A stretch of DNA of 64,000 bases from Eledone cirrhosa (lineage: Eukaryota). The stretch covers positions 310,001 through 374,000 of the forward strand of contig OZ024742.1 of the NCBI GenBank assembly GCA_964016885.1, given 5' to 3'. Below are positions 393 to 62,380 of the stretch, piece by piece. Under the pieces are notes generated by a model. The model was not told where the DNA came from. It saw only the letters and a list, made by a program, of their open reading frames with translations, and did no database searches. The first letter of the stretch is position 1, and each line of letters starts with the position of its first letter. The position numbers and the translations under genes are program-made.

Positions 393-450
393 TTTCATTC
401 TGATGACTGAAAGATTTTGCTTGCTTTCAAGAAACCATTGGTAAATGAAA
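393..450 (+). ncRNA. Type I minimal hammerhead ribozyme (PLE pLTR type)
   Basis: Stem I TTTCATT(393-399)/AATGAAA(444-450); core CTGATGA(400-406); stem II TGAAAG/CTTTCA; GAAA(431-434); short stem III CC-ATT-GG; GTA cleavage triplet ending 443. Confidence 0.85.
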
Positions 451-528
451 TAATTATCTTATGTTGTTTATTACATAACTATATATATAGAGATGTGAGA
501 AAAACCACAGACCCTCCATCTCAACTCA

Positions 529-566
529 CCTTTTGAAAAGTAGAAGAACTGCGAAACCGGTAAAGG
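529..566 (+). ncRNA. Hammerhead ribozyme variant with U3-A8 core, upstream of PLE ORF1
   Basis: Stem I CCTT/AAGG; core TTGAAAA(533-539); stem II GTAG/CTGC; GAAA(553-556); palindromic stem III ACCGGT; GTA triplet; AATAAA at 572. Confidence 0.65.
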
Positions 567-746
567 AACCAAATAAATATATATATTTTTAAAAAAAAAA
601 TAAATAAATAAATAAGACTCCAGTTGCATTTTCGATTTCATCTCTTTTTCTTTATACTTTCACTCGTGTAGGACACCTCGGTTATTTTTCATTTTGTTAA
701 AAAAAACCTCACTTTCTAATATATACCCACCACACGAAGACCGAAA

Positions 747-1850
747 ATGCCACCAAAGTCTCAACAAAACAACAACTCACTGAACCAGGACATCTTAAAT
801 GAACTCAAAGAGATTTCCTCTAAACTCTCAATTTTGACCAACAAAGTGGACCAAATACACATCTATAAAAAAGGACCCCACGAAGAAACAGAAAATACCC
901 AAGAGACGAATATTACTCTAGTATTAACTAAGCTAATCGAAACCATTGAAACAGCAATGCTCCAAAAGCTGGAACAACCGTTAGAACCCAATCTACGAGA
1001 TGTCCACTTAGTGAAAAACACCCTAATAAACATATGGACTCAAAAGCTCACAGCCCGCAAATTCGCCCTTTGGAATCTCATAAAAAATAATGGCAAGGCA
1101 GACATATATGAAAAGTGGCTAAACTCTACCCCAATCATCCTCCCCAAAAAACTCCAAATAAAACCCATCCCGAATGAACCAGAAAACCAACAAAGACTTA
1201 GGGAAAAGATGGCATTGGAAACATTTAAAACAGAAATAGAACTGTTGCGATTAAGAGCCAACTCCAACAAAGAAAAATTCAAGTCACTGGACCAACAGAT
1301 GGACACAGAAATCTCAAAGCACTCTGAAGGCCTACTCTACAAAAAAACGCTAAAACTTTGGAAAGAAAACTGTGAGGATAAAGAACTAACATCCCTCCAG
1401 CGATGGGAAAAAAACACCACCTGGTTCAACAACTACGAAATGGACTTCAAAAATAAACAACATACAGGTAACCCATTTTTAAAACAAACTAAAACTCACA
1501 CACCACATGCACAACAAATAACAAAAAAAGTAACAAAACGTCCAACATACCCCCAGCAAAACTATAACGATAATCCCAGAAACCATAGACAAAACTATAA
1601 CCCTACTAACAAAAACCAAAGATCCCCGAACACAAGGCAGGACCTGATCCGCAGATCACAACCCACACAAAACCTATTCCAAAACCGTAGACCCCTGCCT
1701 ACACAGAACCTGTTCCAAAATCGTAGATCCCAACCCACACAAAGGAACCAAATCTACAACCCAGACTATCAACAAACCGAACCTCAATACGTCCGAAACT
1801 TCTATACAAGACCACACAACAACAGGGGAAATACCATTAGATACCATTAG
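747..1850 (+). CDS. PLE ORF1-like protein (helical/coiled-coil N-terminus, Q/N/R-rich tail), prematurely stopped by a 10-bp duplication
   Basis: 367-aa ATG-started ORF; ATACCATTAG duplicated at 1831-1850 creates the TAG; three ~36-bp internal repeats (RRSQPTQNLFQN). Confidence 0.6.
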   Translation: MPPKSQQNNNSLNQDILNELKEISSKLSILTNKVDQIHIYKKGPHEETENTQETNITLVLTKLIETIETAMLQKLEQPLEPNLRDVHLVKNTLINIWTQKLTARKFALWNLIKNNGKADIYEKWLNSTPIILPKKLQIKPIPNEPENQQRLREKMALETFKTEIELLRLRANSNKEKFKSLDQQMDTEISKHSEGLLYKKTLKLWKENCEDKELTSLQRWEKNTTWFNNYEMDFKNKQHTGNPFLKQTKTHTPHAQQITKKVTKRPTYPQQNYNDNPRNHRQNYNPTNKNQRSPNTRQDLIRRSQPTQNLFQNRRPLPTQNLFQNRRSQPTQRNQIYNPDYQQTEPQYVRNFYTRPHNNRGNTIRYH

Positions 1851-1889
1851 ATATAATAATACCATTGAAAAAACATACCAGAAAAATCA

Positions 1890-2175
1890 TTTTTTAGACC
1901 AAGGCTACAGGACTCACGACACCCGGTGGCACCAACCGATTTTGAAAAACCGAAAATAATTAACCTTTCAAATACAAACCTCTCAGCCCAACAAGTAAAA
2001 ATTCTCTCCAAAGGACTGAAATTCACACCAACACCACAATACCCTAACCCCAACGAGATAAATGACGATATCTCACACTTCTGTAGAAAATTACGTCTCA
2101 CAGAGGAATTCTTTGACAAGGAGAATAACGACGAATCAATTGTACGGAATAAAAGCAGCTACAACCCAACAAAAG
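1890..2175 (+). pseudogene. PLE ORF2 N-terminal fragment (pre-RT domain)
   Basis: FFRPRLQ...IINLSN...KGLKFTPTP...[12 protein letters not shown]; runs into microsatellite. Confidence 0.7.
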
Positions 2176-59000: not shown

Positions 59001-59057
59001 AGAATTTATAATAAACGAAGTCAAATTTAACATGTTTGAGTTACTTATTTTATATAC

Positions 59058-61660
59058 ATACTAACAGAATGGCCCGGCGTTGTTCGGGATTTGCTCTAGG
59101 GTTCTTATATATTTGATATATATTTATCCTTCTCGAGCTTCGTGAAGTAAATACGTTTGTTTATATTTTGTTATTGTGTATGCAAAAATATCTGTACACG
59201 AATATATAAATAACAGTATAGAGAAATACGGAAGACCTCGACCTCAGGTTGGTGTCTACATTTTGTGCTTATGAAAAAAATGTGTCGTACATTACCAGGG
59301 TTTTTTCCGTTCGAAGAAAATCAATACTTCATTGCAAAATAAATTACTTTTGTTTATGTGTATGCAAAAATATCTGTACACAAATATATAATTATATATA
59401 TAAATGAAAGGTATAGAAATTGTTGTAGCGAGAAGCTAACAGTATTCCATAACATATATGTGACTATAGCGTAAAAATGGGAAAATAGTTAACATAAGAT
59501 ATGGGAAAAATAATTCAGACTCAATTCAAAAGGAATCAGGATATAGATTTATCCAACAGAATTTAGAGAAATCCAGGGAAAAATCAATAGAGCCTTAACT
59601 CATGATAAAACAAAGTCTAAAGTACTCAACCTTCAATTTGGGACAACTTCAAATGCTCTGTATAGTCTTGAAAAGACTATTTCACGAAAACTTTCAGTGG
59701 AGATGGTCACGGTTGGATTTCGTTCGTCAGCAGAGCTCAACATGGTAACCAAGGTCTCAATGGTAATATGCCAAAAAGGGAATTTAAAAGCAGGCTAGTT
59801 TAACATCATGCGTGGTTATTAAAATAAACGCACATGTGGAAAAACAGGGCTGGTGACGTCAGAATGAGACAAATGTTTGTTTACATGAAACAACAGTCAA
59901 AAACATTCCGTAAGAAAACTCTACAAAAGGAGTTCAGCAAAAAGCAATATCATCGCGGTCTTTTTCCAAAAATATATATATATATATATATATATATATA
60001 TTAAAGGTAGGAACTCCATTCTCTGCCCCAAATGCAAACAATGGGTACACAAGAGATGTAGCGGGATCTCAGGAAGCTTAATTAAGTATGTAGGCTTCAC
60101 ATGTAGCAGCTGTGCTGGGACAGCAAGCAGCAAACAGCCACAGGAAACAAGTACCACCAATCTCTGGGAGGGCTCTGTAGAAACAGTAAACAGCTTCTGC
60201 TACCTAGGTGACCGAATTAGCAGCGGAGGTGGGTGTTCAGAAAATACAATAACTAGGGTAAGAACGGGATGGAAGAAGTTCAGGGAACTACTGCCACTGC
60301 TAGCTGCAAAAGACTTCTCCCTCAAAATGAAAGGCAGACTGTATGATGCATGTATCCGAACAGCAATGTTACATGGTAGTGAGACCAGGGCGCTGAAGGT
60401 GGAAGACTTATGTAGATTAGAAAGAAACGAAGCCTGCATGCTCTGATGGATGTGTAATAGTAATATACGTGAACGGCAAAGCATAAATGAATTGAGAGAG
60501 AGACTTAGCATAAGAGAAATCAAATGCTGTGTGCAGGAGAGGTGGTTGTGTTGGTATGGACATGTGATGCGTATGAAGGATGACAGCTGCATAAAAAGGT
60601 GCAGAGCACTAGAAGTCAATGGAAACCGCGGAGTGGGGAGACCCTAGAAGACCTGGGATGAGATGATAAAAGCCGACCTTACCCAATTACACCTCTCAAA
60701 GGCAATGACACACAGCCGTGACCTCTGGCGTCACGCAGTAATACAGAGTACCCAACCTCCCATGGGTACAAGCTGAAGCATATAGACAATATGCCCCCAC
60801 ACCCTCCCACTGCAAGGTGGTCGTGGAGGTGCCATGGCAAAAAAGCACCCAGCCCACACTGTAAAGTGGACGTGTAGGCGCCACGGGAAAAAGCACCCAG
60901 CACTCACTGTAAATGAGGTTGGTGTTAGGAAGGGCATCCAGCTGTAGAAATCAAGCCAAATCAGTTCCTGTATGAGCAAGGCATGGTCAGCCGACCAGAC
61001 ACTGCCCACAACAGGACAACCCGTCTAATCCATGCTAGCGTGGAAGAACGGACGTAAAATGGTGATGACGATGATGATGATGATTAAAATAACAGATTAA
61101 AGTTTAAGCAAAGAATCGGTGTTTTCACTCTTAACGGGATCTTCTGAAACTAAAATAATAAATCTGTGAACGCAGAAGTAAATATTTCGAAAAACGTTAC
61201 ACACTATATATATATATATATACACACACACACACTATATATACATATATTAACACACACACCGCGTCATAATGACGTAATGCAGACAGCCAGGCATACA
61301 GACAGATATTATAATTGTTTCTACTTTTGGCACAAGGCCAGCAATCCTCCCAGTGTATTACTGGTACTTTATTTTATCGACCCCGTAAGGATGAAAGGCA
61401 AAGTTAACCAGACAGATATTATAATGGCGCAACGTTATATCTATGTATCTATCTAAAAAGAGAAAGACTAAGAGTTATAGAGAGAGATTGCTAAATCGCC
61501 TAATGCGGTCCCTAAAGCATTGAAAATTAGAAAAAAATTTGCTCAAAACACTCACGGGACCATAAGTATTACATGTGTAAAGTTTGAAAAAACTCAGTTG
61601 GGTGGTTCTCGAGTTTTAGTGATTGGACAGACAGACAGACATTCTCTGTTTTAGTTATAT
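59058..61660 (+). mobile_element. Possible non-autonomous Helentron/DINE-1-like element with nested insertions
   Basis: 5' TACTAACAGAATGGCCCGGCGTTGTTCGGG hairpin; 3' AAAGTTTGAA..GTGGTTCTCGAG..(GACA)n..TTATATAT; the interior is not resolved. Confidence 0.4.
60004..61084 (+). mobile_element. RTE family A, diverged, 5'-truncated copy with stops
   Basis: Homologous to 12207-13283, with in-frame TGA/TAG; (GAT)n tail. Confidence 0.9.
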
Positions 61661-61880
61661 ATATATATATATATATCAAATTTATCCCGAACACCCTGTA
61701 TATATATGCAGGATAAGAGGTTATCGTTATAGGCAGTCCACTTAGATGTAGTCCAGTTAGAGTACTCGTGTAGTGGATGGTATTAACGTATAGCTTAGTT
61801 TGACTCAACAAGACGTTTCCATAGTGATGCTGCGAGTTCGCGGTGATTTCTAGCCCATATTGTATAGCCAACCATGTCAC

Positions 61881-62026
61881 TCTTCTCTCTCTCTCTCTCT
61901 CTCTCTCTCTCTCTCTCTCTCTCTCTCTCTCTCTCTCTCTCTCTCTCTCTCTCTCTCTCTCTCTCTCTCTCTCTCTCTCTCTCTCTCTATATATATATAT
62001 ATATATATATATATATATATATATAT
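61881..62026. repeat. (CT)n(TA)n microsatellite
   Basis: Direct reading. Confidence 0.95.
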
Positions 62027-62342
62027 AACAAAGGAAATGTGGTAAGGAACCAGGTGGACCATAACGCACCAAAGTACTCAATACTTAGGGTAGTAGAGTT
62101 GGTAATAGGAACGAGTAGGACCCCGACGGCTAATTTAGATTTAGGTTAGTTGCTTTGGACTATATTTGTAATATGGTTCTTAATGTTATATACATCCTTA
62201 GTTATTCTTATTATATATTTTTATTATTTTTATTTTTATTTTTTTTATTATATATTTTTGCAAGACTTTAGTGTATGTACACTCCATATTCTTCGGAGCT
62301 TCCGGCTTGTATCTGCCGATATTACTTCTTGTTGTTTTGATT

Positions 62343-62380
62343 GCCCTGATGAGTCCTTAATAGGACGAAACATTGTCGGC
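62343..62380 (+). ncRNA. Canonical minimal type I hammerhead ribozyme
   Basis: GCC-CTGATGA-GTCCT-TAAT-AGGAC-GAAA-CATTG-TC-GGC, then AATAAA at 62382. Confidence 0.9.

Follow-up and report, generated by a model that had tools for sequence, protein, structure and literature searches.

What gives a single stretch of the Eledone cirrhosa genome about ten hammerhead ribozyme motifs, and what carries them? The stretch analyzed here (positions 310,001-374,000 of contig OZ024742.1, hereafter the window) spans 64,000 bp of a 3.0-Gb genome and consists mostly of repeats, including a 23-kb satellite, LINE (long interspersed nuclear element) copies, and many (TA)n runs. An initial annotation, made from the sequence alone, listed ten hammerhead sites and attributed them to the pseudo-long terminal repeats (pLTRs) of Penelope-like elements (PLEs), with five carriers that lack an open reading frame (ORF) viewed as possible retrozyme-like elements. 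Our analysis makes it highly probable that the motifs are type I hammerheads at the 3' ends (pLTRs) of at least nine families of endonuclease (EN)-bearing PLEs, lying truncated in (TA)n and likely cutting transposon RNA as pairs. The assignment of the motifs to families was observed directly, as were their fixed 3' ends, the tails that some copies carry, truncation and inversion at the 5' side, ORFs upstream, and helices that covary.

Hammerhead parts were present at all ten annotated sites, and an eleventh motif, 59730 on the minus strand, which the list had missed, proved to be the best-scoring site of all. A type I descriptor found eight sites scoring at least 25 in the 40,850 bp outside the satellite, whereas 200 local dinucleotide shuffles averaged 0.005 sites and never exceeded 1, which bears out the estimate of about ten motifs in 64 kb. 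A simple first scan had overlooked offset helices and U3-A8 cores, and the strict descriptor overlooked long helix II; when the latter was permitted, nine sites were recovered, the addition being 8232. The annotated positions 393, 529, 8227, 14794, 52558, 58726, and 62343 are exact helix I ends, the helix at 393 extending to 388.

The full type I shape, with helices I, II, and III, was seen at eight sites, namely, 59730- and the seven annotated sites with cores at 400+, 533+, 8232+, 14802+, 52615-, 58774-, and 62346+. Three others depart from it. At 49960, helices I and III of the window copy carry mutations, the family itself being intact with helix III ACGTACGT; 5663 combines the core with a 90-nt helix II and the palindrome ACATATGT, while its helix I is one base pair beside the core, and this near-absence recurs in 20 of 20 copies of the family; and 58948 repeats 58774 in inverted orientation, its core being broken (TTGGAGA). 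The core elements CUGANGA (or the U3-A8 form), GAAA, and UH were found at the remaining 10 of the 11 sites. Most sites carry CUGANGA, as annotated, whereas 533 and 49960 carry the U3-A8 core, an already known hammerhead variant (PMC4209133; here and below, citations refer to the parts of each paper that were compared). The annotated lack of sequence relationship holds only in part: 5663/8232, 14802/52615, and 14802/58774 align above chance (z, 4.5 to 7.3).

In isolation, the 59730 motif takes up the whole hammerhead fold (z, -2.81; 0 of 200 shuffles were equally stable), and folding closes helix II over rods of 91 nt in 8232 and 90 nt in 5663, with the palindromes following. Several short motifs were no more stable than their shuffles. 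At its gathering score, Rfam reported zero hammerheads in the window; the only match, to Hammerhead_1 at 62340-62384, scored 31.7 bits against a 34-bit cutoff. At 5745-5778, AGGTATT in the helix II rod of 5663 may pair with AATACCT just 3' of the predicted cut, giving an alternative fold.

To place the motifs in their carriers, one genome search was made for each of ten families, named here after the window motif; the best 40 candidates were scored, and 20 to 30 copies per family were fetched. The first look returned 437 to 2777 sequences per family, which are candidates rather than copy numbers, and identity among the best 40 copies was 88 to 100%. Each of the ten families has a fixed 3' end adjoining (TA)n, which came next in 257 of 260 copies. 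Eight families also have an optional fixed tail, found in 8 to 19 of the 20 to 30 copies of each; no tail was seen in family 62346, though none was sought by pattern. The 5' ends vary through truncation, and many copies contain inversions. At the start of the tail, a CTC...GAG hairpin (ACTC/GAGT or GCTC/GAGC; 14905-14940 in the window and loci L092, L130, L142, L068, L170, and L216) is common to families; it was predicted in 5 of 8 folds and could signal the start of reverse transcription.

Same-strand, colinear EN or reverse transcriptase (RT) sequence lies upstream of the motif in 9 of the 10 families, in agreement with the annotated link to the 3' ends of many PLE lineages. Upstream of family 400 are RT and EN in loci L223 and L229 and EN in L224; a PLE ORF precedes family 14802 in L219, L221, and L228 and family 62346 in L222 and accompanies family 533 in L225, L226, L230, and L231. 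Longer copies of 49960, 5663, and 8232 reach a same-strand PLE ORF. For family 58774 only the EN part was recovered, in 2 of 30 loci (L354 and L357), and for family 52615 EN was found in 2 of 11 further loci (L405 and L407).

Clade hallmarks were taken from PMC8557442. By inspection, the Hydra marks (a CxCX5-6C linker and CxxC/CxH, with CCHH absent) occur in families 400, 5663, 8232, 14802, 52615, and 62346; family 49960 shows CxC and CxxC/CxH, and 58774 shows CxxC/CxH alone. Both RWK and DKT are present in L229 (family 400), and DKT is found with RRIRWR in L219 and L228 (family 14802). The Neptune marks GxKF, DKG, CX2-5CxxC, and CCHH are found in L225 (family 533). Judged by these motifs rather than by an RT tree, eight families are assigned to or near the Hydra clade and family 533 to the Neptune type, although for the latter Nematis is also possible. 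The Neptune-type element (747-1900; L214, L225, and L230) encodes a 367-amino-acid (aa) ORF1 with no Pfam match; its -1-frame overlap with ORF2 falls on the heptamer T TTT TTA, making this a candidate for programmed frameshifting; the upstream, overlapping ORF1 differs from what is given in the part of the Neptune clade description compared. The window copy of ORF1 is stopped early by a 10-bp duplication. Three candidate structures around family 533 were rejected: positions 720-5190 hold two elements rather than one; a hammerhead just upstream of the window is not an inverted 533 pLTR but a member of another family; and a nine-copy 533 array in L227 (68.10 Mb on the same contig) is not a retrozyme but a local duplication of about 900 bp that includes unrelated DNA. 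Read-through of L227 would yield closely spaced 533 ribozymes.

The fetched DNA (1.80 Mb, biased to the queries) contained 600 hits in 66 sequence classes, of which 41 occurred at more than one locus; a non-G N17 was a selection criterion for all 66, and a few classes may be false or damaged, none having been dropped. Catalytic cores are kept over all these classes, the compensated U3-A8 form included. Of 31 even-length classes, 25 have a perfectly palindromic helix III, compared with 1.5 to 20% expected; this would fit dimer cleavage, as the initial annotation had proposed. Helix II arms reach 72 to 116 nt in twelve classes, and when seven long-helix-II classes were folded, three clearly beat their shuffles (z, -1.9 to -3.8) and four did not. 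Stem covariation was found across 24 related motifs: 92.7% of cells are paired, and 16 of 20 pairs changed on both sides, with 0 of 500 shuffles as high and slid controls at 31 to 54%. In a sample of 49 motifs, (TA)4 occurred within 282 nt downstream in 47 and upstream in 27.

Family 59730 is an ORF-less, dispersed, head-to-tail element with a 625-nt unit and a 10-nt junction, 635 nt altogether. Its longest open frame is 83 codons, and no colinear ORF was found in 51 loci (two sets of 30 with an overlap of 9, out of 2777 candidates). The 5' start is preceded by the unit's own 3' end in 28 of 30 start-bearing loci (25 by BLAST and 3 by eye), and insertions are up to 1.65 units long. Junction length is near constant, and an older subfamily has its own junction variant in eight loci; the junction is thus template-copied sequence rather than target DNA. 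The start of the unit resembles the tails of autonomous families, and 59730 is likely a nonautonomous derivative in which PLE tail sequence is fused to a PLE-like 3' end. In its core, only the free position N7 varies widely (49% versus 2.7%); subfamily-diagnostic changes, in small counts, fall in 0 of 37 columns of the core and helices I and III versus 15 of 249 in the flanks. Helix III of the older subfamily is a 16-bp palindrome with one central base, and thus a dimer form is also possible. Locus L216 was rejected as a link between 59730 and an ORF, since the PLE there terminates in a (TA)n of its own ahead of the unit. A long helix III, of 16 to 20 nt, is also seen in further hammerhead classes (the L045 class, L386, and L339), which may be monomer-type families.

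These features can be accommodated in a model in which a partial-tandem PLE copy would be transcribed, as known PLE work suggests, and two hammerheads would pair via palindromic helix III to release unit-length RNA (PMC4209133). The RT-endonuclease would then nick (TA)n and start to copy from either of two fixed points shortly 3' of the ribozyme (PMC11167929); copying would mostly abort early and leave one solo motif. The 59730 unit would be copied in trans by a PLE enzyme from circular or tandem RNA.

How many such motifs the genome holds was estimated from 60 evenly spaced 10-kb stretches (600 kb). A relaxed descriptor found 51 motifs, compared with 0 to 2 in four shuffles, and the strict descriptor found 35 at score 20 and 24 at score 25. 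The density of 58 to 85 per Mb extrapolates to about 175,000 to 255,000 motifs genome-wide (bootstrap for the relaxed count, 170,000 to 355,000; about 120,000 at the harshest threshold). The window is 1.4 to 3 times richer than the genome (P = 0.14 for the 64 kb and 0.04 minus the satellite), and its motif count is not exceptional for Eledone cirrhosa. Schistosoma has a high density of canonical hammerhead motifs, and descriptors differ between studies, so that a record load is not established. For the 28-Gb axolotl genome, 126,247 motifs have been counted with a different descriptor (PMC7229834).

Several observations count against the PLE-end model, mostly against its cleavage step. Copy 5' ends show no accumulation at the predicted cut sites in the eight families compared, and the young 5663 family spreads nearly without helix I, its copies nevertheless being 99 to 100% identical. 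An Anolis PLE inserted in vitro without need of hammerhead cleavage, and none of the RNA-seq reads reported for it had an end at the cut site (PMC11167929); activity was reported to be low even in dimers (PMC4209133). The covariation was scored across subfamilies with a control that ignores relatedness and a descriptor that rewards helix III pairs, copies within a family being too alike. The same observations on cut sites, on 5663, and on activity would be expected if the motifs are PLE ends in which cleavage is dispensable or very slow, the fold acting as a signal for protein binding or packaging, or the ribozymes being passengers. We consider this rather unlikely given that cores are kept over 66 classes, even through the compensated U3-A8 exchange, and that variation in the 59730 core is largely confined to N7. 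Chance matches in AT-rich repetitive DNA would explain why no motif passes the Rfam cutoff and why several short ones fold no better than shuffles, but the excess over shuffles in both the window and the 600-kb sample and the covariation of the helices reduce this explanation to a practically negligible one. The five carriers at 393, 14794, 52558, 58726, and 62343 were annotated as possible retrozyme-like elements; they have no adjacent ORF in the window, and their genomic copies are mostly short. Longer copies of each, however, run into a same-strand GIY-YIG endonuclease of the PLE type about 1.0 to 1.5 kb upstream, and no short tandem units of these families were present in the loci examined. 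They are therefore truncated transposon ends, independent retrozyme-like status being very unlikely, and the sole ORF-less unit found, 59730, had been absent from the annotated list.

For 59730 itself the choice is less clear. We tentatively propose, as possible but doubtful, that no genome counted so far has a larger hammerhead load (about 200,000 intact motifs, belonging to more than 60 sequence classes and stemming from a burst of Hydra-clade PLEs) and that 59730 is a PLE-derived circular-RNA parasite, a monomer-cut 635-nt circle copied more than once around into (TA)n by a PLE enzyme. Such a parasite would put the circular-template model for the origin of pLTRs to a direct test. Against it, we found no array of two complete units in the 51 loci and identified no autonomous partner or mobilizing PLE, and folding of the full unit, whether as a circle or in the linear lowest-energy structure, predicts neither helix I nor helix II. 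It is a serious possibility, if somewhat short of an even chance, that 59730 instead spreads from a linear, uncleaved 1.x-unit transcript that starts in the upstream partial copy, no circular RNA being involved. The missing two-unit arrays and the predicted block of the hammerhead in full-length RNA are as a linear transcript would have them, and most insertions hold one hammerhead, which makes full monomer release from them impossible. The circular template finds its support in upstream partial lengths that are continuous (0 to 412 nt), as would result from over-length copying of a circle, in a few loci with two hammerheads (L033), and in the complete monomer fold of the isolated motif.

The pairing of hammerheads with PLEs is known, and the motifs described here are a real feature of a known kind, with variants and at an unusual scale. 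Hydra-clade PLEs, including Hydra-1_Obim (Craig et al. 2021, PMC8557442), share RWK, DKT, CxCX5C, CxxC/CxH, (TA)n targets, and a hammerhead near the 3' end, and helix III of Hydra-1_Obim (acca-a-tggt) is like that of family 400. The parts of that study compared hold one octopus family, whereas at least eight occur in this one window, and the 26 Hydra-clade motifs of its File S2 have loops II of 3 to 10 nt and no U3-A8 core, in contrast to the 72- to 116-nt arms and U3-A8 cores seen here. Metazoan PLE hammerheads (Cervera and de la Pena 2014, PMC4209133) are similar in their dispersed solo motifs from truncated PLEs, many heterogeneous families, opposite-strand pairs 100 to 700 bp apart, U3-A8 cores, palindromic helix III, and dimer model. 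They differ in number, with thousands per genome (about 9,000 in Xenopus) versus the 175,000 to 255,000 estimated here with a different descriptor, and in helix III, which is absent from their minimal forms and is 6 to 10 nt or longer here. Like metazoan non-LTR retrozymes (PMC7229834; bioRxiv 10.64898/2026.07.22.740005), 59730 is an ORF-less head-to-tail unit with a type I hammerhead, its length lies within the reported 51 to 972 bp, and a PLE origin and mobilization have been proposed for both. Unlike them, in the 51 loci it formed no tandem of two or more complete units, occurring instead as dispersed insertions of 1 to 1.65 units that are 5' truncated in the manner of PLEs and target (TA)n; its helix III is 8 bp long, and its circular RNA is putative. 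In the portions of the literature compared, this scale, helix II arms of 72 to 116 nt, and a unit of the 59730 type were not found, although published supplementary unit lists may hold similar ones. Our literature search returned no paper dedicated to the hammerheads of cephalopods or to helix II forms of such length. The variants of Lunse et al. (PMC5785218) could overlap with those described here.

The in vivo role of PLE hammerheads has been called "still a mystery" (PMC7761336). Eledone cirrhosa offers natural contrasts among dozens of recently active families: dimer-type versus long helix III, C3-G8 versus U3-A8 cores, short versus 100-nt helix II, a family without helix I, and an ORF-less element with a template-copied junction. 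With these contrasts and 59730, the dimer and circular-template models should be easy to test. At about one motif per 12 to 17 kb, host transcripts would contain many potential cut sites, and an intron strand bias is predicted if the ribozymes are active.

Features of the window (positions are those of the 64,000-bp stretch).
Feature	Position	Strand	Context
Type I hammerhead, core 400, helix III ACCATTGGT, predicted cut after A443	388..455	+	In 5'-truncated Hydra-type PLE end 164-489
U3-A8 hammerhead (UUGAAAA), palindrome ACCGGT, predicted cut after A562	529..566	+	In 5' pLTR (491-725) of Neptune-type PLE
ORF1 (367 aa) and ORF2 start, Neptune-type PLE	747..2178	+	775-aa RT-GIY-YIG ORF2 open in locus L225
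Hydra-type PLE 3' part (RT end, GIY-YIG EN, 3' untranslated region [UTR]), ends at (TA)n	4110..5833	+	
Hammerhead-like, 90-nt rod helix II, palindrome ACATATGT, helix I nearly absent	5663..5771	+	
Type I hammerhead, 91-nt rod helix II, palindrome ACACGTGT, predicted cut after C8341	8227..8346	+	Hydra-type PLE end 7093-8386
Type I hammerhead, palindrome ATATATAT, predicted cut after A14851	14794..14859	+	Hydra-type PLE 3' UTR 13385-~14990, tail present
U3-A8 hammerhead (UUGAGAA), damaged copy of intact family	49923..49965	-	3' UTR of Hydra-type PLE 49698-52113
5' inverted piece of Hydra-type PLE 49698-52113	52051-52122		
Type I hammerhead, helix III ATATGTAT, U17 at 52569	52558..52626	-	150-bp Hydra-type PLE end 52502-52652
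Type I hammerhead, palindrome ATATATAT, predicted cut after A58730	58726..58778	-	PLE end with tail, ~58580-58895
Inverted 5' copy of the 58726 PLE end, broken core at 58952	58900..59055	+	
5'-truncated copy (unit positions 49-625) of 635-nt ORF-less head-to-tail element	59402..59974	-	
Type I hammerhead, 8-bp helix III, predicted cut after A59661	59655..59736	-	
Compact type I hammerhead, predicted cut after C62377	62343..62380	+	Hydra-type PLE end 62134-62443

No Pfam hit to a host exon was obtained in the window, and no convincing host gene was found there. Two exon-like frames lie on the minus strand: one at 19793-20008 is weakly similar to leucine-rich repeats (LRRs), with a single LRR match that does not extend to other parts of the region, and one of 37 aa at 25302-25412 follows a good splice acceptor. 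The satellite at 26126-49140 comprises 256 copies of 90 bp with 94% matches; one of its frames, RWLGHVLR, resembles the C-terminal end of a LINE ORF, from which it may derive. A second array, at 24121-25314, has 19 copies of 63 bp. The LINE copies at 9716-13259, 56070-58459, 62445-64000, 8837-9742, 17288-18196, and 60005-61078 belong to two young subfamilies that are about 75% alike; they encode AP-endonuclease and RT domains with a PHD finger after the RT, and two copies are 99.7% identical. Heads of tRNA-derived short interspersed nuclear elements are present at 16796-16853, 52427-52484, and 55848-55911.

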